Assembly: GCA_910588535.1 (NCBI GenBank)
Contig: CAJUOO010000002.1
Location: 47,176 to 111,175, forward strand
Source of the DNA: an uncultured Lachnospiraceae bacterium
Lineage (GTDB): Bacteria; Bacillota; Clostridia; Lachnospirales; Lachnospiraceae
DNA: 64,000 nucleotides
Direction: 5' to 3'
The position numbers and the translations under genes are program-made. Of this stretch, positions 1-31,157 are shown one piece after another (positions within the stretch are counted from its first letter, which is position 1; each line of letters opens with the position of its first letter). The notes under the pieces were generated by a model, which was not told the DNA's origin, ran no database searches, and saw only the letters and a list, made by a program, of their open reading frames with translations.

Positions 1-190
1 TCAGCCAGCCCCATTCCCCTGCGGATAAACTGCTGCAATTATGGTTCGCAAAAACGCAATATAATCCCTGCTTCACCACAAGCTGGCAGGCTTCCCCCAC
101 AATCTGCGCTGCTGCCAGTTCCCCCGATACCAGATATTGCCGATAATTCTTTACTTCCTGTTCCATCCGTCTTAAAACATTTTCTCTCAT
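1..190 (-). CDS. hypothetical protein, N-terminal 63 codons only (gene runs off the window start); probably mobile-element associated
   Basis: ATG at 190-188 with SD GGAAGGAG 6 nt upstream. The frame stays open to position 1. It directly follows the Cys-rich gene in the same orientation. Confidence 0.5.
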   Translation of the reverse strand, partial: MRENVLRRMEQEVKNYRQYLVSGELAAAQIVGEACQLVVKQGLYCVFANHNCSSLSAGEWGWL

Positions 191-203
191 AAAGTTCTCC
201 TTC

Positions 204-392
204 CTATGCCCCGCATTCTTCATAAAGAGGGCAGTCACAACAATAGTCATAGTCACATTCCGCACCTGTCAGAAAACCATACTGCACAATCGGCATACAG
301 GTGTTCAGATACAGGCTGCACCTTCCGCAAGCCCCAGGCATTTCAGGCGTTACGGGCTTCCCCTGTAATAAGCAGTTCTCCATCCCATTCAT
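204..392 (-). CDS. small cysteine-rich protein of the kind carried by Firmicutes conjugative elements
   Basis: 62-aa ORF with 9 Cys, including GACGRC and CCDC clusters. The internal ATG at 383 (M4) has better SD spacing. The family call is from memory. Confidence 0.55.
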   Translation of the reverse strand: MNGMENCLLQGKPVTPEMPGACGRCSLYLNTCMPIVQYGFLTGAECDYDYCCDCPLYEECGA

Positions 393-435
393 CTCCTTTC
401 CTTAAAAAATGGCAAAAAAATAAGACCTATGGGGG

Positions 436-1440
436 TTACACTATTTCCACACGGTCATATGCCCTGCTGTAAAAATACACATTGTCGGATAAGACTTCTT
501 CCTCCGCAACCTCGGAACCGTTGATTCCCTGAACCATCATTTTCATGTATTCAACATCCATGTCCTCCGTGTCAGGGAGAAAGATAAGCTCATGTATAGA
601 GGACGGGAGAATGTAAAAATCAGAACCGATACACTCCGCAAAATCCCTTAACAGGTTCGGGTACAGAAGGACGGATGCGCCGTTAAGCCTGTCATGATTG
701 GAAGCCACATACATAGGAAACACATCTTCCGTTACCGCTGGCATATCATAAAATTCTCCTGAATCACCAGCATCCAGCATATCCTCCATCATTTCCACCA
801 TCACGCTTTCCATGGACTGCACCCTGCCCCTGAAAATACGCTGCGTGTTCTCCATGGCGATAGGATAGATTGTCTGCGTATCGGTTCCCCATGCATCCAT
901 AAAACTATTTCTTACAAGGATTGTGCCTGCATCTTTATGCCCCCTTGACACCAGAATGTAAAAGACAACGGCAAGGTCATGGTACGGGATATAAGGGATG
1001 CCTGAAAGCAATTCCCTGTTCCGCTCCGCATTTACCAGCTTGAAGCATATCCTTTCTTTCGCACGGTTGAAGTCTGTTACCATCCTGCTGTCAAATCCCC
1101 GTACCGCCTTGCCCTGCTCATATAAGCGCATAATTTCCTTACATACCGCTTCCATTGTCATGCCGTCCTGATATTCTTCAAACAGGCTTTCAAGGTAGAT
1201 GGTCGGGGCTATGTTGATAACCTTCTCACGGATGGCAAGCCCTGTTAAATGTGTGCCGTTGTTCTTCGTCACTGGCTGGATGCTGATGCTATACCCGCTG
1301 CCATAGACCGCCTCCATTGCGCTCTTTACTGTCCCTGCAAATGCCTCCATAGTCCTGATTGTACCGTCTGCCATGATTATGCGTCCTCCTTCGTTGTTCG
1401 AATTGCTGTTAGCTGCTCCGTTATTCTTTGCGTTGTTCAT
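436..1440 (-). CDS. DUF5688-like protein (ICE accessory/leading-region protein)
   Basis: 334 aa with SD AAAGGAG 9 nt upstream of the ATG. It has an Asn/Gly-rich N-terminus followed by a globular domain. The resemblance to DUF5688 is recalled, not searched. Confidence 0.6.
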   Translation of the reverse strand: MNNAKNNGAANSNSNNEGGRIIMADGTIRTMEAFAGTVKSAMEAVYGSGYSISIQPVTKNNGTHLTGLAIREKVINIAPTIYLESLFEEYQDGMTMEAVCKEIMRLYEQGKAVRGFDSRMVTDFNRAKERICFKLVNAERNRELLSGIPYIPYHDLAVVFYILVSRGHKDAGTILVRNSFMDAWGTDTQTIYPIAMENTQRIFRGRVQSMESVMVEMMEDMLDAGDSGEFYDMPAVTEDVFPMYVASNHDRLNGASVLLYPNLLRDFAECIGSDFYILPSSIHELIFLPDTEDMDVEYMKMMVQGINGSEVAEEEVLSDNVYFYSRAYDRVEIV

Positions 1441-1731
1441 AGTGATAATCTCCTTTTCTTTGATAAAATGTGTTGTCGTGTTCCATATTCAGTTGTAAGC
1501 TGCTGTTTCAGGCACAGCTACCATGGATTCTGCAAGGGAACCACCGCCTTTCCTTTGGATTGTGTACAAAAATAGAACAGTTTTATGACTTGTTCAGGTC
1601 AAATAAAAAAGACACCAAGATTTCTCCTGATGCCTTAAATACTCTGATATATAGACCCGTGGGGTTCCGAACGAAAAACTTCTGTAAAAGTTAAAAGCGG
1701 GAACCGAACGGAAAATATATCTGAAAATTTC

Positions 1732-2475
1732 CTATATAACGGGCGTTGCCACACCCATGTTTACATATGTATAATCCACAATAATAATCAAATGGTCATA
1801 CACTACTATCGTGAAAGTCGCTGCCTTATTCCCATCCTCTTTTATTATTATGAATTGCATGGGCGTACAAACCATAGTACCCAGATTATAATATGACTTT
1901 TGCAGACAATCCGCTGCTTCATCAAAAAATGGCATACTTAATTCCCTGCTTGGAATACCATTACCATGCTGCCCTGCATACTTGCAAAAAGCATTATAAG
2001 TATTCAGGATATAATAATCCGTACCAGAATAAAGCCTGTAAAAATCTTCTTTATCAGGTATGTACTCCCACCTGTGATAATCAACCCAATTGCAGAAATC
2101 CTTACCGTCTGGCTCACAGTTTATAAGGATTTTATATTCATTGCATACCAGAAAAAGATACTTATATCCTCTGTAGCTTAGTATTTTTAAGCCGTTATCC
2201 TTACTATTGCTGTTGGCAACATGGTAGCTGCCACTTTCCATAAGGGTGACATATTCCGTATCAGATTCAGGAGCACTCTGCGCCACATAATCAATGCTTT
2301 TCCTGATTCGCTCATTTAACGCTCTGGCATCCATATTATCTTGATAAAGTTCCCAATCTATAAACTCTAAAGGAATCTTTTGTCTTTTTATTTTCTCAAA
2401 AACAATATATAAATTTGTACAAACCATAGTTTTTACTTTTCCTACTTTCCATGTACCACTTCCATAAAACATCAC
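1732..2475 (-). CDS. hypothetical protein (AT-rich cargo gene)
   Basis: 247-aa ORF. The start is uncertain; the ATG at 2427 (M17) has a better AGGAAAAG SD. No motif recognised. Confidence 0.55.
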   Translation of the reverse strand: MMFYGSGTWKVGKVKTMVCTNLYIVFEKIKRQKIPLEFIDWELYQDNMDARALNERIRKSIDYVAQSAPESDTEYVTLMESGSYHVANSNSKDNGLKILSYRGYKYLFLVCNEYKILINCEPDGKDFCNWVDYHRWEYIPDKEDFYRLYSGTDYYILNTYNAFCKYAGQHGNGIPSRELSMPFFDEAADCLQKSYYNLGTMVCTPMQFIIIKEDGNKAATFTIVVYDHLIIIVDYTYVNMGVATPVI

Positions 2476-2524
2476 TCAATTTTTTTAGTATTCGTTTTTA
2501 CTAATAATATATGTATACTTCCTT

Positions 2525-3013
2525 TCAAACCTCTCCCCGCAGCATTTTCGATACAAGATATTCTTTTCCAAAAAACTTTTCATAATCTTTCAAGGTATGG
2601 TTACAGTATAATATAGTTTCGGTGATTTGTTTTTCTAGCGCGATAGTATTATTATTCCTAACTCCTGTTTCATTTAAAATTCTTTTTGCGTTTTCGCAAT
2701 GTACTAGTGCATCCTTATGTAACATCTTATATTTCTCAAAAATCATATCATATTTTTCACCATTGCTTTCCTCCCATTTATCAATCAACTCTTTTATATT
2801 ACTGACTCTTCTAGTGGCAGTAGTACCCCAAATAATGCCAAGGCCATATAATTCGTTTCGCATTTCACATAAGTCTGTAAAGAAACGACCAGCTAGACCC
2901 GTTGCTTCTTTTGCTTTATCGTAATGTTCTAAAACTACATTCAACACACTTGGGTCATCTACTTTTTCAATAGTTACATTTATTTTTCCCCACTGTATAT
3001 CTCCCATTGACAT
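2525..3013 (-). CDS. hypothetical helical protein
   Basis: 162-aa ORF with AGGAGGT immediately upstream. The likely start is the third codon, ATG at 3007. It lies 5 nt downstream of the preceding gene. Confidence 0.6.
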   Translation of the reverse strand: MSMGDIQWGKINVTIEKVDDPSVLNVVLEHYDKAKEATGLAGRFFTDLCEMRNELYGLGIIWGTTATRRVSNIKELIDKWEESNGEKYDMIFEKYKMLHKDALVHCENAKRILNETGVRNNNTIALEKQITETILYCNHTLKDYEKFFGKEYLVSKMLRGEV

Positions 3014-3018
3014 ACCTC

Positions 3019-3378
3019 CTAATAATACTGGAACTCATTAACAAGTTCCCCTTTTTTGTCTATTTCATTCAGGATATCTTCATCCACCTGATATGCAGGG
3101 GCTTCTGTTTCATATGTAGCTTTAATAAAATACCTATCCATTGGATTTTTCTTTGTATAAATTACACCGTGGTTGCGAAGCCTATCTCTTATCCTGCTTA
3201 CTGTCACAACCGCCCTCTGCATATTTTTCCTTGCATTAACTCCCAGCATTCTTCCAACCACATCAGCCGCTGTGTTATTCAGCCAATTTGCAATGCTATC
3301 CCAAAATTTGTCTAAAATAACCGCCAATGCAATCCCCACTACAGCTCCAAGTGCTATTCCTGCTACTACATGCCACAT
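3019..3378 (-). CDS. small membrane-anchored protein (one N-terminal TM helix)
   Basis: 119 aa with SD GGGAGG 10 nt upstream. The N-terminus WHVVAGIALGAVVGIALAVIL is hydrophobic and the rest is soluble. Confidence 0.65.
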   Translation of the reverse strand: MWHVVAGIALGAVVGIALAVILDKFWDSIANWLNNTAADVVGRMLGVNARKNMQRAVVTVSRIRDRLRNHGVIYTKKNPMDRYFIKATYETEAPAYQVDEDILNEIDKKGELVNEFQYY

Positions 3379-3486
3379 AATGTATCTACCTCCCTATCTT
3401 ATATATTTTCTTAATTCCGAGTCATTTATTATAAATCTGGCAAATATGGATTATCTTTTTGCACTCCATATTTTAAACTTATGTCT

Positions 3487-4344
3487 TTATTCAGAACAAC
3501 GAGCTATTGTCGCATATATTTCCTTTTCAGTTTCTTTATCACCACCCGCATATTCTAACGCATAATTTGCTACTTCTATTGCTTTATCTTTTTCTCCGCA
3601 TTCTTCATATATTATAGACATCCATCGATAACAAAAACATGCCATTGTCCGCCAATATGGAATGCCCCTCGATAGATTATCTCCTTGATTATTAGAGAGA
3701 ATCCTCTCTACAGATTCCAGACAAAGATTTGAATATCTTATTACCTCTCGACCATGACCTTCTAAATCAGATTCAGACAATTCAAATTCTGAATTTGACA
3801 TTAGACTAAAGCATTCTGCAATCTCACCATCAGATTCAGCATAATCCAAAGCAGATTGCACCATTTTTAATTCATTATGAAAATCCTTATAATTACCATA
3901 CAGTCTCCCCATATTTATATAATAAGTCCAATGGTCTCTACTCGTCTCTGCGAACCTAAATCCCGCTTTCCATACTTTCATAGCATTTTCAGGCATATTC
4001 ATTCCCATATAACACACGCCCAAATCGTTATGACATAAGAACCTCTGTGTATGAGCACCATAATAATTAGTGCAATATTCTATCGCTTTCGAAAATTCTA
4101 TAACAACTTTCGCATCATTCATCTCCGATAAACTTCGCGCCATCAAATAGTGTCCCCAAAATTTATCAGCATCCGTTTTTGCAAACCACAAAACTTTCTT
4201 TGCCGCATTTAATGCCCCCTTATAATCTGCGCTATTATAAAGAGTCATCGCTTTATCTACTGCGTTTAACAGTGCCTTTCCAGGTGTTCCTTCATATTTG
4301 GTTTCTATGCTTTTTATGGTAACATTCGACCATTCCATTTCCAT
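3487..4344 (-). CDS. tetratricopeptide-repeat protein (operon gene E)
   Basis: 285 aa with repeated ~34-aa A/Y/G-patterned helical pairs (e.g. GHYLMARSLSEMNDAKVVIEFSKAIEY). It starts 6 nt after the stop of gene D. Confidence 0.75.
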   Translation of the reverse strand: MEMEWSNVTIKSIETKYEGTPGKALLNAVDKAMTLYNSADYKGALNAAKKVLWFAKTDADKFWGHYLMARSLSEMNDAKVVIEFSKAIEYCTNYYGAHTQRFLCHNDLGVCYMGMNMPENAMKVWKAGFRFAETSRDHWTYYINMGRLYGNYKDFHNELKMVQSALDYAESDGEIAECFSLMSNSEFELSESDLEGHGREVIRYSNLCLESVERILSNNQGDNLSRGIPYWRTMACFCYRWMSIIYEECGEKDKAIEVANYALEYAGGDKETEKEIYATIARCSE

Positions 4345-4350
4345 AATTTA

Positions 4351-5115
4351 TCATTTCCTCTCTTTCATCCCTCGTTCCGATACTGCATAACCTAATAAAT
4401 TCTGTATTCTATGGGGTGCATACGGTACAATTTCATCTGCCTTAGTATAATTGAGTACCATATCATCCAGCCTGTTTATCTCGGATGCCTGACTGATAAA
4501 CTCCTTCACGTCCACCTGTTCTGCCAACATTATGCTGTTCAGTACCATTTTCAGGATTGCATCAACAGAGCTTTTCACGCTCCCACACATCAGATATGCA
4601 AAATTATCAGCGGAATAATTCGCAAGCCTGTACCAGTGGTAGAATGACAGTTTTGACGATTTTTCAAACTGGTCTGGTGCCATCTGGTGAATAACTTTAA
4701 ATCGTTCCTCCATCATAGTACGCTGCTTTGTCACGCCATCCGCAATCTTATATATCTCCCTTGCCAATACAAATTGCAGCTCCCTATCCGTAAAATCCTG
4801 TATGGTCTTTGCGGAAAGCTCTATCCAGAAATTGCTGATTCCATAGCTCTCTGCGCCGTAATAATAATCCTCATAGACATACACGGTCGGGCTGCTTATC
4901 CCTGCTGCCCCTGCCATATCTCTAACCATCTGGAACACTCTGGGAAACTGTTTTTCCGATACCCTTACTGTCTTCCCAAGGAAATCAGGCAGCTTTATCT
5001 TATAGTCGATTTCGTCATAAACCTTCTCGAAATCCTCCTGAAACATCACACCGCCCTCATACTGGCTGTATGCTTTATCCTGCCCTGCATGGATAAACGC
5101 CGAACGTTCCATCAT
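4351..5115 (-). CDS. M48 (HtpX/Ste24)-fold protein lacking the HExxH zinc site (operon gene D, pseudo-peptidase)
   Basis: 254 aa. The region PTVYVYED...NFWIELSAKTIQDFTDRELQFVLAREIYKIADG follows the M48 pattern, but HExxH reads AREIYK. There is an ATGA overlap with gene C. Confidence 0.6.
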   Translation of the reverse strand: MMERSAFIHAGQDKAYSQYEGGVMFQEDFEKVYDEIDYKIKLPDFLGKTVRVSEKQFPRVFQMVRDMAGAAGISSPTVYVYEDYYYGAESYGISNFWIELSAKTIQDFTDRELQFVLAREIYKIADGVTKQRTMMEERFKVIHQMAPDQFEKSSKLSFYHWYRLANYSADNFAYLMCGSVKSSVDAILKMVLNSIMLAEQVDVKEFISQASEINRLDDMVLNYTKADEIVPYAPHRIQNLLGYAVSERGMKERK

Positions 5116-5777
5116 ATATACACATACACCTCCGTATCTCCCAGAACTGCAAGCACTTCCCCCACAACCTCACGGCATCTTGTTTCTCCCGTTTCCCTGT
5201 AGCATGACTGCAACGCTTCCAATGCCTCCATATCATCAGGGATGAATTGCAGCGCATAGGTTAGGAACGGAACCGCTTTCTTGTACAGCCCTTTCCCTGA
5301 CAGCAGCATTCCGAACACTTTATTTGCAAGGAAATGTCCCTCCACGCTCCCATGCTCCCGAAAATACGCCTCCATCAGCTCAAATGCCTTGTCCTTATGC
5401 CCTGCATGGTATTCCTGCAATCCCTGAATACACTCCATGAACACAAAATTATGACCATCTGCCATCTTCACACAGTCACCCAGATTTTTGAAACTGTTGG
5501 ATGCAAGGAACACCATGCGGTACAATAGCTGCTCCCTCTGCGCCATCAGTTCTGACCTGTGCTTTTTCCCATAGTCCGAATTGTCCTGTATCTCAATGCT
5601 GGTCTTTACTTCGCCCTCAATCCGCTTTAGCTCCTTCTGGATGCGGCTTATCTGTGTCTGCATATAGCCTGTGTCATAAAAATGTGTTTCTTCTATGACT
5701 TTTTCCGTTGCCCCTGATAATGCATTGACAAATCCCATCTCTGCCTTGCGGTACATTGTCACGGTTTTTTCAATCAT
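5112..5777 (-). CDS. coiled-coil / TPR-like helical protein (operon gene C)
   Basis: 221 aa with SD AGGAGGG inside the end of gene B. The N-terminal part is a charged helical segment and the C-terminal part has TPR-like repeats. Confidence 0.65.
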   Translation of the reverse strand: MIEKTVTMYRKAEMGFVNALSGATEKVIEETHFYDTGYMQTQISRIQKELKRIEGEVKTSIEIQDNSDYGKKHRSELMAQREQLLYRMVFLASNSFKNLGDCVKMADGHNFVFMECIQGLQEYHAGHKDKAFELMEAYFREHGSVEGHFLANKVFGMLLSGKGLYKKAVPFLTYALQFIPDDMEALEALQSCYRETGETRCREVVGEVLAVLGDTEVYVYI

Positions 5778-5780
5778 CCC

Positions 5781-6953
5781 TTATCCCTCCTGACCGCTTA
5801 TCTCTTTCTGGTACTGTTCCTCGGTAATGGTTTCCGTGGATACTACCTGAAACCCTCCCGTCCCGCTTTTATCCTCATAACGTTCTCGGATAACATGGTA
5901 GGCATAATCAAACACAGAAAAATCCAGCATTTCCTTTTCCTGCTCCAATGCATACAGGGCAGCATAAAATACCATATCCTTGATATCTGCCCCTGAAATG
6001 CCCCCATAACGCCCTGCAAGGCTGTCTGCTGTGACTTCCCCCTGCAATGGCATTCTCGCCCCTAAATGCAGCTTCCAGATAGCTTCCCGCGCCTCCCTGT
6101 CTGGCATATCGAAATAAACGCTCAACAGGATTCTCCGCTTGAACGCCTCGTCATAATTGCTGATAAGGTTTGTTGTAAAGACCACGACACCCACAAACTT
6201 TTCCAGTTCCATCAAAAGTACGCTTCTGGTGATGTTCACCCCATAATCCGCTGACTGCGTGACGGATGTAAGCCGTTTCCCCAGAAAGGAATCCGCTTCA
6301 TCAAATACCAGCACCGCATCATCCCTTGTGGCGCACTCAAAAGCCTTTCGGATGTTCTTGGGCGTTTCCCCAACATACTTTGATTCCAGCTCCGAATAAT
6401 TGATGTGGTACACTTTCTTGCCTAGAGCCTGTGCGACCGCCTCCGCTGTCATGCTCTTGCCTGTCCCAGCTTTACCATAAAAATTGAGGATGATAGCCCT
6501 GCTGCCATTAAAATATTCTGACATCCCCCATTCCTCGGACATCTTCTTCCTGTGCCTGACCGCTGATATGGCTGTCCTGACCTTCTCCCTGACTTCCTCA
6601 TTCAATGCGACCTGTCCCAGCGAAAACCTCGGTTCGTAGCTCTCTATGATTTCCTGTGCTGGCTCCTGCTGCCCCTGCTTATCATTATCAGATATAGCCC
6701 TGCTGCCCGACTTTCGGATGATGATTTCATCTGGTACGGGGTTGTATCTGGAACAGTTGCCCTTGACCGCCTTTGCCATCTGTTCCAGCATATTGTCAAT
6801 CAGTATCTCGTCCAGCAGTTCCTCTTTCCCGTTTACCTCCCCCGTAAAGACATCCTGCAAATGGAAGCTCACTGTCCTGCCCCCTATGGAACAGTATTTT
6901 GTAATCCCTGCTGCCTTTATGTTCTGTACATCTGGTTCTCTTTTCTGTTTCAT
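5781..6953 (-). CDS. classical-clade AAA+ ATPase with ~150-aa N-terminal non-ATPase domain (operon gene B)
   Basis: Walker A is GKAGTGKS and Walker B is LVFDEAD. It also has the ESKYVGETPKNIRKAF and FKRR motifs. There is an ATGA overlap with gene A. Confidence 0.9.
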   Translation of the reverse strand: MKQKREPDVQNIKAAGITKYCSIGGRTVSFHLQDVFTGEVNGKEELLDEILIDNMLEQMAKAVKGNCSRYNPVPDEIIIRKSGSRAISDNDKQGQQEPAQEIIESYEPRFSLGQVALNEEVREKVRTAISAVRHRKKMSEEWGMSEYFNGSRAIILNFYGKAGTGKSMTAEAVAQALGKKVYHINYSELESKYVGETPKNIRKAFECATRDDAVLVFDEADSFLGKRLTSVTQSADYGVNITRSVLLMELEKFVGVVVFTTNLISNYDEAFKRRILLSVYFDMPDREAREAIWKLHLGARMPLQGEVTADSLAGRYGGISGADIKDMVFYAALYALEQEKEMLDFSVFDYAYHVIRERYEDKSGTGGFQVVSTETITEEQYQKEISGQEG

Positions 6954-7204
6954 TTCTTCCCGCCTTTCCCGAATATCAAAGGTACGGCATTGGGGTTTCT
7001 GGCAAAATAGCCTGTTGCCCTGTTGATGGCTGTATTACCGTCACCATCACGCCAATATCCCGCTACGGATGTACCGTCTTTCCGCATATATGCGCTTACA
7101 TTGTGTGGATGGACATAATGCGCTGGCGTGAGTGTGGTAAACTGCCTCCCCCTGCCACTGAATGTATTGATTGCATAAGGCTGGAATGTCGTTTCCCCTA
7201 ACAT
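6950..7204 (-). CDS. small soluble protein, Gly/Arg/aromatic rich (operon gene A)
   Basis: The track ORF starts at a GTG (7213). The ATG at 7204 has SD GGAAAGG about 8 nt upstream. Motif: YMRKDGTSVAGYWRDGDG. No TM segment or signal peptide. Confidence 0.6.
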   Translation of the reverse strand: MLGETTFQPYAINTFSGRGRQFTTLTPAHYVHPHNVSAYMRKDGTSVAGYWRDGDGNTAINRATGYFARNPNAVPLIFGKGGKK

Positions 7205-7232
7205 ATCTTTCACCTTTCCTGTCCGCTACAGT

Positions 7233-7255
7233 CTGTATCTTATTTTTCGATACAG
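7233..7255. promoter_or_regulatory. inverted repeat CTGTATC-N9-GATACAG in the divergent promoter region (possible operator)
   Basis: A perfect 7-bp inverted repeat lies between the first gene of the minus-strand operon and the XRE gene. Confidence 0.3.
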
Positions 7256-7357
7256 CTACACATATATTAACATATTAATAACTAAAATGCTACATCATGT
7301 TACATTTTTCTATGTTATGCCAAATAAAATTTTTATAAATGGAAGGTGGATAAGGAT

Positions 7358-7786
7358 ATGAAGGAACGGCTGCTCCCTGAAAAACTGAAAGAACTGCGGA
7401 AAGCGCACAACTACACACAGGATTATGTGGCTGCTGCCCTCGGTGTTGTGAGGCAGACCTACAGCCATTATGAATCTGGCAGAAGGACACCAAGCCCCGA
7501 CATCCTCTATAAGCTGGCTGGGCTTTACAATATCACCGTGGATGATTTGATGCAGCTCACGATTGAATTAGACCGCAATGTCTACTATGATGCACCAGCA
7601 CCCACACAATCCAGTGAGGATTTAGCTGGGTTCCTCGAATACTTCAACAGCCCGAACAACAAAAAGAAATACCAGCTTTTCAACAATCTGGAAAAAGAGC
7701 TGCTGTATTATTTTGAGAAGATATCAGAGGATGATAAGAGGGAAATCATAGAGTTTACGAAAATCAAAGCACATAAGAACAGATAA
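7358..7786 (+). CDS. XRE-family helix-turn-helix transcriptional regulator
   Basis: The HTH signature is LKELRKAHNYTQDYVAAALGVVRQTYSHYESGRRTP. The ATG at 7358 is preferred over the GTG at 7346 (SD GGAAGGTGG). Confidence 0.85.
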   Translation: MKERLLPEKLKELRKAHNYTQDYVAAALGVVRQTYSHYESGRRTPSPDILYKLAGLYNITVDDLMQLTIELDRNVYYDAPAPTQSSEDLAGFLEYFNSPNNKKKYQLFNNLEKELLYYFEKISEDDKREIIEFTKIKAHKNR

Positions 7787-7829
7787 CAGCCAAAGTATAG
7801 CATGACCGTACTCTGGCTGTTCTTGTATT
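7785..7829 (+). terminator. possible intrinsic terminator of the XRE gene
   Basis: The stem AACAGCCAAAG / CTCTGGCTGTT has 1 mismatch and is followed by a weak T-rich tail, CTTGTATT. Confidence 0.35.
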
Positions 7830-8297
7830 AAAGCCATATATAGGAAGGGCTGGGTATATATCTTTTTGTTTCTTTAAAGGAAAAGGAGTCGGTTCTCCCA
7901 GAAATTTTCACTGGATTTTCCCCTATACTGCGATTCCAAAAATATATATGCAGATTTTTCTCCCTAAATTGGCAGTTTCTTTAACCTATAACAGCAAAAA
8001 AGATACCATTCATAGAAGTATATCCTATGAATATAGTATCCCTAAGTTAACAATATTGTGTCGTCATCAAGAGAGACAGACTGACATATTATTAAAGAAA
8101 ATATTGCTCTAATCTGCATCCGCTAATCTTCATTGACTTGGCTGCTGCCACGCTATGCTTTGCTACAATATTCTATATTATAATATAATTCGCTAAGATA
8201 TGCTCTGCTCTGCAATATCCACTTTCAAATATACACCAGCCGTCTCTTCTATTAAGATAACACACTCCGCATAAAAAGACAATCAACTAAACAATAT

Positions 8298-8870
8298 TCA
8301 ATTTTCACACTGTAGCCTCTTAGCCCGCAACAATGTACTTTTGCTGATGCCTGTCATTTCTGAAACCTCTTTGTAAGAATGATTCTCCAATAGCTCCATA
8401 GCATGATTCAGTTGTGCCCTGCCATACTTCGGTGGTCTTCCCTCCTTAAAGTCAGGGTTCTGCCTTGCTATGGCTTTCCCTTCCCCTGTGCGCTCCACAA
8501 TCATATCACGCTCAAATTCCGCAAATGCAAGCATGACGTTCCGCACCAGCTTCCCCGTAGGGGTATTGTCCATCATGCCCATATTCAGCACATGGACGGT
8601 GATACCCTTATCAAGCAATGACTGTATCAGTTCAATGCCCTGTGTGGCACTTCTGGCTATCCTGTCCAGCTTCGTGACCTTCAATGTATCGCCTGGCTGC
8701 ATGACTGTCAGCAGCTTATCCAGTTCTGGGCGGCGTGATTTCGTTCCCGTAAAAGCATCTGCATAAACCTCCTCTGCCCCTGCTGCCCTTAGTGCGTTCT
8801 CCTGTGCTTCCAGACTGTTCCCGTCCTTTGCCTGTGTCTTTGTTGATACCCTTGCATAACCGTAAATCAT
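8298..8870 (-). CDS. small serine recombinase (resolvase/invertase family)
   Basis: [13 protein letters not shown] carries the catalytic Ser, and there is a C-terminal HTH ([16 protein letters not shown]). The ATG at 8870 has SD AAAGGAGAA. The upstream 44 codons of the track ORF are discarded. Confidence 0.9.
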
Positions 8871-9027
8871 AATGTGTTTCTCCTTTCGTAATTTGATTTC
8901 AGGAATCAAAAAAAGAAGGTCATTACAACCTTCTCCTAATGATACCCATGATTCTATTTTGTTACTTATGAATATAAGAAATGACACCACTGGAAGCCCC
9001 ATAAAACCGTAGGTCAGCAGTTGGTGT

Positions 9028-9045
9028 CATAACTTAAAAGTTATG
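9028..9045. other. perfect palindrome CATAACTT-AA-AAGTTATG (hix/res-like candidate recombinase site)
   Basis: Two 8-bp half sites surround a central AA, about 160 bp upstream of the recombinase start. The loop is too short, and there is no T-run, for a good terminator. Confidence 0.3.
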
Positions 9046-9059
9046 GTACTACACAATAC

Positions 9060-9848
9060 TTACCAAGATAATTTACCATTCTCTATTTGTATCGGTTTAC
9101 CTTGAACGTTTGATAAAACTTGCATGATTCCAGCAAACTGCAATTGCACCCCATTTGACTTAATTGTCACTCTCATTGCATTATTAGGTGTTAATGGTCT
9201 AAACAGTCGTATCGTTTTCATTTTCAATCTAACAGGAGTTCCGTTAATACTTCCATCTACCTCACCTGTACTATCATAATGAGTTGAATCCTCTGGTTGC
9301 ACATCAAATTCTTCATATTTGTTATTAAAAATAAAAGCAAAATTTGCATCATTTTCGCTAAACATCATTGCCCTGATTTCTATTTTAATCAATTTATCTG
9401 ACACAATATCTACTACAGCCTTTACGTTCTCTATATCCGCCAAAGCTTTATATGTACTATTTCCTTTTGCTACGCACTTCATTTGTGCAACTGCATCATC
9501 TAAACCAACTCCATACAAATCTATATATAATGAATCGGTTAATATAGCAGGAGGTTTACAATCCGCAATTCTTACAGGTACAAATTTCAAGTTCTCGTTT
9601 ATGGACTTAGTTAATCCACTTTGCCATTCCTTTGTTACCATCTTACTGTTTAAACTATTTGGAGATAAAAAATAGAAGAATGTAGTAAACTTTTCTATCC
9701 CTTCATTCATTTTTCCAATTATGCTATCTCCTGGCTGTATAGACCATTTATCATAAAAAATATTATTTCTTCCAAATTCCAATTCCAACCTTCTTGCAAC
9801 CATATCTACTATTTGTTCATCATTATGGTTATAACTAATAAAAATCAT
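9060..9848 (-). CDS. TIR-domain protein with ~130-aa beta-rich C-terminal domain
   Basis: MIFISYNHND ... NNIFYDKWSIQPGDSI ... FLSPNSLNSKMVTKEWQSGL matches the bacterial TIR pattern, including the Glu before Trp. The ATG at 9848 has SD AAGGAGG. Confidence 0.85.
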   Translation of the reverse strand: MIFISYNHNDEQIVDMVARRLELEFGRNNIFYDKWSIQPGDSIIGKMNEGIEKFTTFFYFLSPNSLNSKMVTKEWQSGLTKSINENLKFVPVRIADCKPPAILTDSLYIDLYGVGLDDAVAQMKCVAKGNSTYKALADIENVKAVVDIVSDKLIKIEIRAMMFSENDANFAFIFNNKYEEFDVQPEDSTHYDSTGEVDGSINGTPVRLKMKTIRLFRPLTPNNAMRVTIKSNGVQLQFAGIMQVLSNVQGKPIQIENGKLSW

Positions 9849-9934
9849 TTTACATGACCTCCTTCTCAAATGTTATTGTTAATCTATTCTCAGCATATCT
9901 ACGCCATTTAAAATCCTATCCTAAAATTTTTCAA

Positions 9935-11593
9935 TTAGCAAATCACATTAAAATATTTTAAGGCATCCTTAATGTACTCCACCTTCTCCTGCGGACAGTG
10001 CTTGACTTCTGGATTATCTTTCTTGGATTTATTATAGTTCTCTCCCATATCCAATCCACACATCCGCTTTACTTCTGCAATATACCTCGTATGCACATTC
10101 ACACCATACTTTTCCTTCACATACTCCTTAATCTTCCCATAGGTAGCCTTTTCTGTTGGCGTGTAATTGCTTTCTGCACTAGGCTCCATTGTTACCTCAA
10201 TTTTAGGTGTATCTTTTTTGAGGGATAATTTGACAACCGTCTCCACATGCCTCGTCTGCGGAAACATATCCACCATCTGCACCTTCTCCGCCCGATATCC
10301 CATCTCCTCCAGCTTTTTCAAATCTCTCGCCAATGTAGCCGAGTCACATGATACATACACTATTCGTTCTGGTTGCATCTCAACCATAGTTTGTAACAGT
10401 CCTTCTTCACACCCCTTTCTTGGCGGATCTACTACAATTACATCCACCTGCGCCGCAACCTCATCTCCACTATGCGTTTTATTCTTCTTACACCATTCAG
10501 GAAACACTTCCTCTGCTTTTCCAACAAAAAATTCTGCATTATCCACTCCATTTTTTAATGCATTTTGCCGTGCATTATCAATAGCAGCTGGTACAATCTC
10601 AACCCCATACACTTTACCAGCCTTTTTTGCAAGAAAAAGTGAAATAGTACCAATTCCACAATACAGATCCCACACCACCTCACGTCCAGTAAGCTCTGCA
10701 TATTCTAATACTTTCGCATATAGCTTTTCTGTCTGCACAGGATTTACTTGAAAAAATGACAACGGCGAGATCTCAAACCACACATCACCAATTCGATCCT
10801 CAATCGTTGTATCACCCCAAAGACTAATAATCTCTTTACCCAAAATTACATTTGTCCTCTCCTGATTTGGGCTTATTGTAATACTCTTCATCCCATTTAC
10901 CACCGCCAAACGCTCTGCCAAAATCTGCCCATGCGGAAGCTGTCTACCATTTATCACAATACAAACCATCAGATGTCCCGTGTGATATCCTTTTCGGATC
11001 AACACATGCCGAACCAGACCTGAATGGCTCTCCTCACAATATGGCTCCACATAATACTCACGCATATAATCCATGACAATAGACAAAATCTCTTTATTCT
11101 CCTCCACTCCCAACACACAATCATCACAAGAAATAACCGAATGAGTCCTGCCCGCATAAAACCCAGCAATCAGATTGCCGGACTTATCCCGCCCTATTGG
11201 AAACTGTGCCTTATTGCGGTAGCGCCACGGATTGTCCATACCAATAATCGGCTCACAACTATACTCAGATAACTTGCCGATACGATCCAGATTATTTCTC
11301 ACCATAGCTTCCTTAAGTCTAAGCTGCTCTTGATACTCATACGCCTGAAGCTGACATCCCCCACACTGCCTCGCCACTGGGCATCGTGGAGCAACACGCT
11401 TCTCTGAAGGCTTTATTAATTTAACAAGCCTGCCATACCCATAACTTTTTTTTGCCTTAATCACTTTAATCTCCGCCACATCTCCGACAACTGTATCCTT
11501 GATAAAAAGGGTATAGCCATCAACCTTGCCTATACCCTCTCCATCCTGATTGATATCTATAATTTCTACAACCGAATAATCATTTTTTTTCAT
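9935..11593 (-). CDS. rlmD: 23S rRNA (uracil-5-)-methyltransferase RlmD/RumA family with ~95-aa C-terminal extension
   Basis: It has a TRAM-like N-terminus, the Cys cluster CPVARQCGGCQ, the SAM motif DLYCGIGT and the PPRKG motif. The ATG at 11593 has SD GAGGTGG. Confidence 0.85.
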   Translation of the reverse strand: MKKNDYSVVEIIDINQDGEGIGKVDGYTLFIKDTVVGDVAEIKVIKAKKSYGYGRLVKLIKPSEKRVAPRCPVARQCGGCQLQAYEYQEQLRLKEAMVRNNLDRIGKLSEYSCEPIIGMDNPWRYRNKAQFPIGRDKSGNLIAGFYAGRTHSVISCDDCVLGVEENKEILSIVMDYMREYYVEPYCEESHSGLVRHVLIRKGYHTGHLMVCIVINGRQLPHGQILAERLAVVNGMKSITISPNQERTNVILGKEIISLWGDTTIEDRIGDVWFEISPLSFFQVNPVQTEKLYAKVLEYAELTGREVVWDLYCGIGTISLFLAKKAGKVYGVEIVPAAIDNARQNALKNGVDNAEFFVGKAEEVFPEWCKKNKTHSGDEVAAQVDVIVVDPPRKGCEEGLLQTMVEMQPERIVYVSCDSATLARDLKKLEEMGYRAEKVQMVDMFPQTRHVETVVKLSLKKDTPKIEVTMEPSAESNYTPTEKATYGKIKEYVKEKYGVNVHTRYIAEVKRMCGLDMGENYNKSKKDNPEVKHCPQEKVEYIKDALKYFNVIC

Positions 11594-11968
11594 ATATAAA
11601 CCACCTCTCTGCCCCAAACACCAATATATCATAAAATATATTAACTAACTCTTGCTTATCCACTCTAGCCTTCTTCTGTTTTTATCTTCTACTTAGTTAT
11701 AAAACTGACACACTATAAAAACACGCGGAAATAAAGCCACAATCACAACTGCCAATGATCCGTTTGTTTCGTATTTCTGCGGCATTACAGACAGCAGATA
11801 GAAAAAATTGAAAAATCAAACTAATCCAAGCAGGAAAAATAATACTATTTCCAACAAATTCCACATCTCCCTAATATACCTAAGTATAATAACTATCCAA
11901 ATGTAATTTTGACAAGTAAGACAGAATATTTATATTTCTTATTTTGTCACTCTTACTCTGAAAAAAAT

Positions 11969-12619
11969 TTACCTCTTTTCTCTCAAAATATGCCACACAT
12001 CATTACCAATGAAACCACATTTACGATATAGTTCTTCTGGTTTATCAGGGCTGCAACATTGTCCCGATACAGTAACAAATCGTGCTGTGTTTTTCATTCT
12101 CCGTAACAGATCCAATACCATATAACGCCCTAACCCACATCTACGATAATTCTTTGATACCTGAATCCATTCTAGTACACCTTCACCGATCTCCTCATCC
12201 AGTTCAGCAATACCAGTTGCCACAATTTCTCCTGTATTAATGTCCTTGACAGCCAACCACAATTCTGGGCAATATACTCTTCTGGCTATATAGCTCTGTA
12301 ACTCAGACACAGAAAGACAGACGTCTTTATAACATTTATTAATATGTTCAGCAAACTCTGGAATAGTGGCTTTATAAAGCGAATATCCATCTGGCATTGA
12401 TACAGAATCAACTTCCTGCAAATGATGCTGCAGACGAAAATATGGTTCATCAAAATATTTATCCAACAACTCTGGATAAAACTCCCTATGATGTAAGATT
12501 TTCATATGATCTGGCACAGTAGTACAATTTGCTTTCCAATAAGGAACAGATAATGTACCACATGGATTTTCAAGATATTGCTTTTTTGATACGATATTCA
12601 TAAACCAATTTTTCTCCAT
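11969..12619 (-). CDS. GNAT family N-acetyltransferase
   Basis: The acetyl-CoA motif is RRCGLGRYMVLDLLRR. 216 aa; start uncertain. Confidence 0.7.
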   Translation of the reverse strand: MEKNWFMNIVSKKQYLENPCGTLSVPYWKANCTTVPDHMKILHHREFYPELLDKYFDEPYFRLQHHLQEVDSVSMPDGYSLYKATIPEFAEHINKCYKDVCLSVSELQSYIARRVYCPELWLAVKDINTGEIVATGIAELDEEIGEGVLEWIQVSKNYRRCGLGRYMVLDLLRRMKNTARFVTVSGQCCSPDKPEELYRKCGFIGNDVWHILREKR

Positions 12620-30985: not shown

Positions 30986-31056
30986 GCGGGTGTAGTTCAA
31001 TGGTAGAACACTAGCCTTCCAAGCTAGATACGTGGGTTCGATTCCCATCACCCGCT
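30986..31056 (+). tRNA. tRNA-Gly (anticodon UCC)
   Basis: Cloverleaf folded by hand: acceptor GCGGGTG/CACCCGC, anticodon loop CTTCCAA, T-loop TTCGATT. No encoded CCA. Confidence 0.9.
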
Positions 31057-31085
31057 CTGGCGTCAGTTTAATATTATTTTTGTAT

Positions 31086-31157
<72 letters not shown>

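Follow-up and report, generated by a model that had tools for sequence, protein, structure and literature searches.

A conserved, apparently undescribed AAA+ ATPase and pseudo-peptidase gene system with exchangeable tagged partners on a mobile element of Lachnospiraceae

Chaperone-centred "ternary" and GTPase–Hsp70 conflict systems have been predicted, including variants with a classical-clade, FtsH-type AAA+ ATPase and variants that combine Hsp70 and GrpE with DnaJ- or tetratricopeptide repeat (TPR)-fused proteins (Kaur, Burroughs, Iyer and Aravind 2020; PMC7159879). In the toxin–antitoxin–chaperone (TAC) defence systems, a chaperone-addiction tag is used (10.1101/2024.02.24.581848). Here we analyse a block of minus-strand genes between positions 1609 and 7323 of a 64,000-nucleotide stretch (hereafter the window) of an uncultured Lachnospiraceae bacterium (GCA_910588535.1, contig CAJUOO010000002.1). 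The block is a conserved, apparently undescribed gene system on a mobile element. Its gene content, conservation, motifs and folds, a tag shared by its partner proteins, the swapping of its cassettes, and the context of the slot in which it lies are matters of observation. The sequences suggest a conflict or defence system that acts through the tag-directed remodelling of proteins, a reading to which we give about an even chance, and its target would most likely be a phage or plasmid. The initial annotation of this DNA had already proposed a candidate conflict system; that idea survives, while its list of parts does not.

Gene order and conservation of the module

The compared loci, labelled with L-numbers (L062–L068 being sister elements without the module), came from 17 species genomes and 32 metagenome contigs, and 38 of them had enough flanking sequence. 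When the window proteins were mapped on all loci, the order A–B–C–D–F119 was found to be kept in 37 of the 38, and the only one breaking it is interrupted by a recombinase insertion. In the window, these five components are encoded by gene A (6950–7204), gene B (5781–6953), gene C (5112–5777), gene D (4351–5115), and the gene of the 119-aa membrane-anchored protein F119 (3019–3378). The initial annotation had delimited the block as five genes, A to E; conservation in this order holds for A to D but not for gene E (3487–4344), as the fifth conserved member is F119. Gene E, coding for a 285-aa TPR-like protein, lies outside the conserved core; it was found just in copies of the window's element and, with 51% identity, in L031, and is a swappable partner instead of a fixed member of the system. 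With this change, the block is indeed a conserved, co-ordered, and tightly packed module on an integrated element.

The gene D family comprises 185 homologous clusters. Gene D is present in 17 of 185,579 species-representative genomes and on 32 metagenome contigs, and the hosts are mostly Lachnospiraceae, including Eubacterium, Butyrivibrio, Pseudobutyrivibrio, Waltera, and Weimeria. Beyond this family, it was detected in one Oscillospiraceae and one Acetobacterium metagenome-assembled genome (MAG), and a near-identical copy in an "Ignavibacteriae" MAG suggests transfer or a binning error. Among Lachnospiraceae of the human gut and the rumen the system is common, with one B variant occurring on 163 contigs. 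A phage or plasmid origin was considered and rejected: gene D was found neither in 50,697 phage records nor in IMG/VR, its sole plasmid match was an active M48 peptidase in an unrelated context (Bernardetia), and a megablast of the operon against the plasmid collection gave no match. One additional copy (L061, 7900–11400 of a 116-kb contig) is heavily pseudogenised, and short broken open reading frames (ORFs) are what remains there of A, D, and one tagged gene; it was excluded from the comparison, and evidently the module can decay in place.

All five minus-strand ORFs from A to E are present in the ORF list of the window, and the tight packing described for them was also observed: A and B overlap by an ATGA, B and C are separated by 3 nt, C and D share a 4-nt ATGA overlap, and the gap between D and E is 6 nt; B and C, and likewise D and E, share a reading frame, with a stop codon in between. 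The limits set at A and E, on the other hand, were too narrow, as the operon goes on through F119, 108 nt after E, and, 5 nt further, through G162 (2525–3013, minus strand), a tagged protein of 160–162 aa and the second swappable partner of the window. It then continues through H247 (1732–2427, minus strand) to a terminator-like hairpin with a T-run at 1609–1636 on the same strand, the probable end of the transcription unit. H247 is a 231-aa protein encoded by the last gene, whose membership is uncertain; homologues with 29–36% identity occupy the same position in L017, L030, L043, and L044, and no match was found in Pfam, NCBIfam, or PHROGs. At the other end, a promoter-like site found by consensus scan (TTGGCA-18-CATGAT, 7294–7323, minus strand) is the probable operon start and lies inside the 141-bp intergenic region between A and a divergent XRE gene. 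Both assignments are pattern matches and not evidence of function; the transcription unit probably runs from about 7290 to the hairpin and holds eight genes. An Rfam scan of positions 1–12,000 of the window found no RNA element.

The identities between loci divide the module into two parts. L034 and L037, with beta-helix and Hsp70 partners, respectively, are 100% identical in A, 95% in B, 67% in C, and 89% in D, with only 35% in F119; the window and L030, whose partner types also differ, share 95% in B, 100% in C, 95% in D, and 48% in F119. Among loci with the same kind of partner, L037 and L028 (both of the Hsp70 type) show identities of 49, 51, 32, and 48% in A, B, C, and D and of 61% in F119, and L022 and L026 (the same beta-helix partner) show 51, 75, 57, and 73% in A to D and 85% in F119. 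Between the window and L031, which have the same E and G partners, F119 is 78% identical, and the G162 homologue is found at the same place. It is thus the partner type, not A–D, that F119 follows, and we therefore distinguish a constant A–D engine from an exchangeable cassette made of F119 plus one to three partner genes. Modular shuffling of this sort is typical of conflict systems. Over 17 loci, mean identity was 75% for the AAA core of B, 71% for D, 66% for A, 55% for C, 50% for F119, and 48% for the N-domain of B, the last three being the fastest-evolving parts of the core.

The predicted motor, the pseudo-peptidase, and the tagged partners

Gene B codes for a 390-aa AAA+ ATPase which, as annotated, is of the classical clade and has intact Walker A (GKAGTGKS) and Walker B (LVFDEAD) motifs. 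The Pfam AAA family matched with an E-value of 1.3e-22 and 81 bits, together with AAA_lid_3, and AAA_5 reached just 0.063. In 25 homologues there is no variation at Walker A K166, Walker B D218/E219, sensor-1 N262, or R273/R274, nor at Y193-V194-G195 of the pore loop, and the motifs GKAGTGKS, LVFDEAD, KYVG, TTN, and KRR are invariant as well. Judged by its sequence, the protein is a classical-clade member, having Walker A and B, an aromatic pore loop 1, the sensor-1 Asn, and Arg fingers. In NCBIfam (June 2026; PADLOC was used in its 2023 version), the PAN, IteA, Cdc48, CdvC, and FtsH models score about equal, all far below their family cut-offs. The AlphaFold model has a mean pLDDT (predicted local distance difference test) of 61, with values of 80–87 for residues 10–80 of the N-domain. 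It shows a beta-hairpin-rich N-domain (approximately residues 10–80), a disordered linker (82–103), and then the AAA core, whose nearest solved folds are Cdc48/p97, the proteasomal Rpt subunits, PAN, an i-AAA protease, and Ycf2-FtsHi. From sequence and fold together, gene B is predicted to be a substrate-threading unfoldase.

The product of gene D, a soluble protein of 254 aa, was annotated as an M48 fold without its zinc site, and the alignments bear this out. R119-E120-I-Y-K123 aligns on HExxH and N166 on the Glu that provides the third ligand, so that the two His and the Glu are replaced by R119, K123, and N166, while E120 keeps the position of the catalytic base; all four residues are invariant in 23 homologues. 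The family profile puts REIYK on HEVSH of HtpX, and BLASTP against the active Bernardetia M48 (E = 1e-18) puts it on HELGH, with NYSAD on ELSAD. Against the Pfam M48 family the protein scores 16.4 bits, where the threshold is 20.3, and weak HtpX matches appeared in the family-model scans. Its model (pLDDT 79.8; predicted template modelling score, pTM, 0.83) gave as best PDB matches in Foldseek exclusively M48/M56 peptidases, namely HtpX, Ste24, ZMPSTE24, BepA, and BlaR1, with weak E-values of about 1e-2 but probabilities of about 1. Because all three metal ligands are replaced family-wide, gene D is a pseudo-peptidase and not an M48 member in the enzymatic sense, and the whole family consists of zinc-less M48 pseudo-peptidases.

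Gene C (221 aa) had been described as coiled-coil/TPR-like. The TPR part stands, since the C-terminal half matches consensus TPR proteins with 2.6e-16 in the PDB sequence-profile search, covering two to three repeats, and TPR proteins were all that this search returned; the putative coiled coil of the N-terminal half comes from inspection of the sequence. F119 has a single N-terminal transmembrane helix (residues 4–22), a conserved FWxxIxxWLNNTAA motif, and a small C-terminal domain; no transmembrane helices were predicted in A–E.

Gene A is the first gene of the unit and codes for 84 aa from an ATG preceded by the Shine–Dalgarno sequence AAAGGTG. As noted initially, it is rich in Gly, Arg, and aromatic residues, which make up 37% of the protein. 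Gene callers skip it in public assemblies; since every related locus nevertheless has a conserved copy, with 44–81% identity across loci, we take it to be a real gene, and it is even 100% identical between loci that differ by 5–20% in B–D. The product is soluble and has the core motif HYVxPH...RKDGTxVxGYWRDGDGNT...GYFARNP. No Pfam match was found for it, and the PDB sequence-profile search gave nothing below E = 0.5 for either gene A or F119.

The core of gene A (residues ~25–75; HxVxPHxVxxYxRxDGTxVxGYWRDGDG[ND]T...GGYxRxNP) is itself a widespread module of approximately 50 aa without a Pfam family, with 116 matches at E<1e-3 in a phmmer search against 1.84 billion representatives. These matches are mostly located at the extreme C-terminus of proteins of 100–250 aa whose N-termini are Gly-zipper or transmembrane-like. 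A 622-aa protein with a kinase domain has tandem copies of a related short repeat, VSGYTRxDGTYVSGYTRS, and several of the matched stretches are found in proteins of 2000–5000 aa.

The partner proteins vary from locus to locus and share an N-terminal tag of about 20 aa. Its pattern is M-x-(G)-W-x3, then 0–11 residues and [IV]-x-[VI]-E-x-[VI], often followed by D-x-NP-x-[LIV]-Y; in the window it reads MEMEWSNVTIKSIETKYEG in gene E and (M)GDIQWGKINVTIEKVDD in G162. A hidden Markov model (HMM) of the tag was run against the 4755 ORFs of all loci, and every match with E<0.01 was at an N-terminus, on the operon strand, and 0–2 kb after D, including matches in loci outside the seed set. Among the 372 ORFs of the 64-kb window only E and G162 matched, both of which are seeds. 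The usual place of a partner gene is directly after F119, and sometimes between D and F119 (as for E); in one case each, a partner was seen between B and C and, on the opposite strand, upstream.

After the tag come TPR-like helices and then one of several modules: additional TPRs, a right-handed beta-helix (Beta_helix, 2.2e-9), a domain similar to acyl carriers (PP-binding, 2.1e-12), Sel1-like repeats, or three to seven transmembrane helices, sometimes plus a C-terminal domain. For gene E, the best Pfam match is TPR_2, below threshold (6.1e-5; 23.3 bits against a cut-off of 27), and its homologue in L031 passes the thresholds of both TPR_2 (36.5 bits) and TPR_12 (33.5 bits).

The two atypical placements deserve a brief description. 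In L043, a tagged 478-aa partner with beta-helix-like sequence (7911–9347) sits between B and C, so partner genes can land inside the engine. In Candidatus Weimeria (L027, 6712–7677, and L051, 6245–7210, minus strand), no tagged gene follows F119; a 321-aa protein with TPR and three transmembrane helices, starting MPNFSKPKVTVERVDID, is encoded on the opposite strand approximately 0.2 kb upstream of the first gene of the module and about 2.3 kb upstream of the start of D. Its tag is a Trp-less variant, weakly matched by the HMM (E = 3.8), that is also present after F119 in L056, and the Trp-containing form occurs in L050, L052, and L053. Switching of partner genes by the neighbouring resolvase, in the manner of a shufflon or invertase, was considered and rejected, as no direct or inverted repeats longer than expected by chance were found in positions 1–12,000 of the window.

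In a second subtype (L028, L037, L039, and partly L046), the tagged genes are replaced by a GrpE-like gene (1.3e-13), an Hsp70 gene (1.8e-146), and the gene of a J-domain protein, which bears TPRs in L037. That a J-domain/TPR protein here stands in for the tag/TPR proteins suggests for the tag a role as recruitment handle, coupling a client-binding module to an ATP-driven remodeller. Tag similarity follows F119 best (Spearman 0.50, partial 0.60; 17 loci, with pairs that are not independent and with F119 physically linked to the partners), a covariation that is at most suggestive as a pointer to the receptor of the tag.

The same proteins bear on the main rival explanation, which sees in the module mobile cargo for proteostasis or envelope maintenance, an element-borne chaperone set that would handle membrane or surface proteins and give the host stress tolerance or a surface trait. 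Such cargo would resemble the enterobacterial heat-resistance islands rather than immunity. The likeness of B to the FtsH, PAN, and Cdc48 unfoldases agrees with it, as do the likeness of D to HtpX, the partner of FtsH in the quality control of membrane proteins, the full GrpE–Hsp70–J set of one subtype, and the many partners that are multi-pass membrane proteins. Canonical zinc binding, however, is impossible for D, Pfam and NCBIfam revealed no small heat-shock proteins and no ClpB/ClpK-type disaggregase, and the fast swapping of cassettes on near-identical engines is typical of recognition arms races and not of housekeeping. Taking these points together with the cargo of the sister elements described below, we regard this explanation as unlikely.

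The integrated element and its cargo slot

The integrated element ends within the window, of which it takes up the first ~10.2 kb, and its apparent insertion site is the 3′ end of an rlmD-type 23S rRNA (uracil-5)-methyltransferase gene (9935–11632). This gene has a C-terminal extension of ~100 aa (…VVKLSLKKDTPKIEVTMEP…), and the same extension forms a separate ORF at the element end in L037; because it is apparently supplied by the element and recurs there, elements of this family appear to insert in the 3′ end of rlmD and to rebuild the frame. From the attachment-site (att) side, the backbone consists of variable genes (in the window, a TIR protein), a resolvase, a reverse XRE gene, the slot that holds the module, and genes for DUF5688, ArdC-N, and YqaJ. 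The resolvase, a small serine recombinase (8298–8870, minus strand), is the backbone gene preceding the slot, and the divergent XRE/CapH-like helix-turn-helix regulator (7346–7786, plus strand) is likewise a feature of the slot backbone.

The initial annotation had paired the block with this regulator. The divergent XRE gene is indeed beside the block, but it is not part of the system: it and the resolvase flank the same slot in module-free sister elements (L062, L063, and L066), which assigns both to the slot backbone, and loci with the module outside the element type of the window lack both. The regulator probably represses the slot promoter, an activity that would not be specific to the system. 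One could also see in this arrangement an induction switch of an integrative and conjugative element (ICE) of the ImmR/ImmA type, with D as the anti-repressor protease for XRE and the TPR proteins as Rap-like inputs. The CapH/RstR-like similarity of the divergently transcribed XRE and the occurrence of a metallopeptidase fold and TPR proteins in one operon would fit such a switch. Yet D lacks the zinc ligands in every family member and is M48-like, not ImmA/IrrE-like, XRE and resolvase flank slots with unrelated cargo in sister elements, and about one-third of the module loci have no XRE, which makes a switch of this type highly improbable.

That the block is facultative cargo, in a slot which holds known defence genes in related elements, was borne out by the comparison with sister elements. 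DUF5688, the neighbouring backbone gene, has 1271 homologous clusters versus 185 for gene D, so most DUF5688-type elements are without the module. All six of the sampled sister elements share the DUF5688–ArdC-N–YqaJ backbone and all six hold other cargo in the slot, with the divergent XRE before it seen in L062, L063, and L066 only. The slot contains KwaA/KwaB, a DNA methylase, McrBC, and an AAA_15/21 ATPase in L068; a 239-aa protein and a GajB-like helicase (4.5e-67) in L063; a dynamin-like protein and a HerA-like ATPase in L065; and a HEPN_Toprim_N protein with a Band_7/GYF_2 protein in L067 (Pfam families, with no PADLOC match for either). In L066 it holds flagellin, and in L062 a sortase and a leucine-rich repeat (LRR) protein, with DarTG just upstream. 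These contents bear on the proteostasis explanation in both directions, since sister slots can carry surface cargo (the flagellin and the sortase with the LRR protein) and defence-type genes are present in four of the six.

Several slot partners in L062–L068 are without a PADLOC match and may be further uncharacterised systems. Many elements of this hotspot family, which belongs to Lachnospiraceae and relatives, insert in rlmD, and the cargo hotspot, between the XRE gene and DUF5688 and downstream of the resolvase, can be mined for further systems.

In most loci the ArdC-N and YqaJ genes lie downstream of the module and have the same orientation. Such an arrangement would fit a role in anti-defence or establishment of the element, the tagged adaptors binding defence proteins of the recipient and the unfoldase inactivating them after transfer, and variable adaptors would suit variable host defences. 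The sister slots, though, hold bona fide defence systems (Kiwa, McrBC, GajB-like), and the module is also found away from ArdC/YqaJ in L008, L024/L045, and L027/L051; in addition, neither an origin of transfer nor a relaxase was located that would mark this part as a leading region. We therefore consider this role improbable.

Outside this backbone (L008/L009, L024/L045, and L027/L051), the module twice adjoins DUF3990, a neighbour that in L024 and L008 is the PADLOC candidate PDC-M13/M10, and in L016 it adjoins Type II/IIG restriction-modification genes. In the window, it has as a neighbour the TIR protein of the att-proximal variable region (9060–9869; 262–269 aa), with an N-terminal TIR and an uncharacterised C-terminal half. 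Over its TIR part, this protein matches NCBIfam Retron_TIR (1.7e-10), with weak PADLOC matches to PDC-S66, bSEFIR, and ThsB, and its gene is a defence candidate in its own right. The chromosomal part of the window has a pair of adjacent tRNA-Gly genes (TCC and GCC anticodons) at 30986–31157, which are unrelated to the module.

A possible mechanism and the comparison with known systems

If the system acts by tag-directed remodelling, the shared N-terminal tag, with its Trp and the following beta-strand-like segment, would be a docking handle for the engine, much as a J-domain recruits Hsp70. The variable C-termini of the partners (TPR, beta-helix, or multi-pass membrane regions with outside domains) would recognise a cue or client, which may be an invader protein or an envelope event. 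Gene B would then thread and remodel a protein at the membrane in an ATP-driven manner, with gene D providing a peptide-binding groove or clamp without cleavage and gene C a scaffold. The outcome could be the direct inactivation of the invader protein, or else the release and activation of F119 and the membrane partners, leading to arrest of the infected cell.

A narrower version is tentative and rather doubtful as it stands: the adaptors would aim B and the pseudo-M48 clamp at invader proteins in the cytosol or membrane, giving immunity by forced unfolding. The invader would be neutralised with neither nucleic-acid cleavage nor cell suicide, and F119 would co-evolve with the type of adaptor. 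If defensive, the module would represent a mechanistically different class of immunity, with an engine of unfoldase and dead protease that takes its specificity from tag-docked, swappable adaptors and, in one subtype, uses a dedicated Hsp70 system in their place. It may then influence phage and plasmid traffic in the gut, and the shared tag and the split between engine and cassette are direct and cheap experimental handles.

Several points weigh against a defence system of this kind. No nuclease, NADase, pore-forming, or other classical effector domain was recognisable in the operon; the statement of the initial annotation that no effector is visible is nevertheless too strong given F119 and the multi-pass membrane partners, and the membrane protein F119 could serve as effector. 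The tag may bind F119 or another component rather than the engine, and the correlation between F119 and partner type could stem from physical linkage alone. The confidence of the gene B model is moderate, in line with its mean pLDDT. The flagellin of L066 and the sortase and LRR protein of L062 are non-defence cargo, and with such cargo in two of the six sister slots the slot is not exclusively a defence site. The absence of the system from the phage, IMG/VR, and plasmid collections carries no information on function but limits the comparison. Finally, a catalogue newer than PADLOC-DB 2023 could already list the system.

As for systems already named, PADLOC, NCBIfam, and Pfam gave only the generic AAA similarity of gene B, in agreement with the claim that the block is no named defence system. 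There was no meaningful match for A, C, F119, or the window's partners E and G162 in PADLOC, NCBIfam, Pfam, or PHROGs, and none for D in PADLOC or PHROGs. In the literature covered by full-text search, including Kaur et al. (2020), the gene set is not described, and its proteins are not named there.

The likeness to Iet that the initial annotation had pointed out is thematic. Both combine a classical-type AAA+ with a protease-fold protein on mobile DNA, and IetA is the best PADLOC match for B (5.1e-28; 96.5 bits, comparable to the 81 bits of Pfam AAA). In contrast, B scores 87.2 bits on NCBIfam IteA_antiphage, where the cut-off is 510 and PAN is higher (93.8 bits), and IetS is an S8 subtilisin-like serine protease, whereas D is M48-like and catalytically dead. 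No operon protein matched S8 or IetS in Pfam, PADLOC, or NCBIfam, and nothing in Iet corresponds to A, C, F119, or the tagged partners. Because B misses the IteA cut-off and the S8 protease is absent, the module is not Iet.

The same comparison bears on an addiction or stabilisation module of the toxin–antitoxin type, as first described for IetAS on a Ti plasmid, in which toxicity would come from F119 or the membrane partners and be held in check by the ATPase complex, so that loss of the element would kill the cell. The IetA match is in keeping with it, the Iet pair being cited in toxin–antitoxin papers, and so are the membrane proteins of the cassette and the location of the module, in all cases a mobile element or an island. 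Besides the low IteA score (87 against 510 bits) and the missing S8 protease, though, five to eight genes with polymorphic TPR and beta-helix partners exceed the needs of a stabilisation pair, and most sister elements manage without the module. An addiction role thus seems to us a slim prospect.

With FtsH, HtpX, and the Ycf2-FtsHi assembly the similarities are structural, as the core of B resembles FtsH and i-AAA proteases, with Ycf2-FtsHi among its fold matches, and D resembles HtpX. Ycf2-FtsHi is also a precedent for an AAA+ motor joined with an inactivated metalloprotease module. Unlike FtsH and HtpX, B and D are two separate, soluble proteins of much smaller size, and D is of the M48 type while the FtsH domain is M41. 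The TRIP13/Pch2–HORMA pair of the cyclic-oligonucleotide-based antiphage signalling systems (CBASS) likewise unites a classical AAA+ remodeller with a peptide-binding partner in an immune operon, TRIP13 being a weaker PADLOC match for B (2.2e-12), but PADLOC and Pfam found no HORMA, CD-NTase, or cyclic-nucleotide effector in the operon. The ImmR/ImmA (CapH/CapP) switches differ from the module, for which there was no ImmA/IrrE match in Pfam or NCBIfam and in which the M48-like D is without metal ligands.

TAC systems differ by a SecB-like, ATP-independent chaperone and by a C-terminal element located on the antitoxin, so that homology with the module is not to be expected, and they offer a conceptual precedent for a short peptide that ties a partner to a dedicated chaperone in a defence system. 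The systems of Kaur et al. (2020) also show clear differences, since Pfam and NCBIfam detected no MoxR, vWA, VMAP, iSTAND, or GAP1 GTPase in the module, their FtsH-type component is a double AAA+, and the A/C/D/F119 set and the Trp-containing tag are not described in that work. In particular, the module is not a MoxR–vWA ternary system, as B is of the classical clade and no operon protein matched vWA. What both have in common is an NTP-driven core of a chaperone or co-chaperone with diversifying partner or effector modules, and in this sense these systems are the nearest thematic precedent for the module described here.

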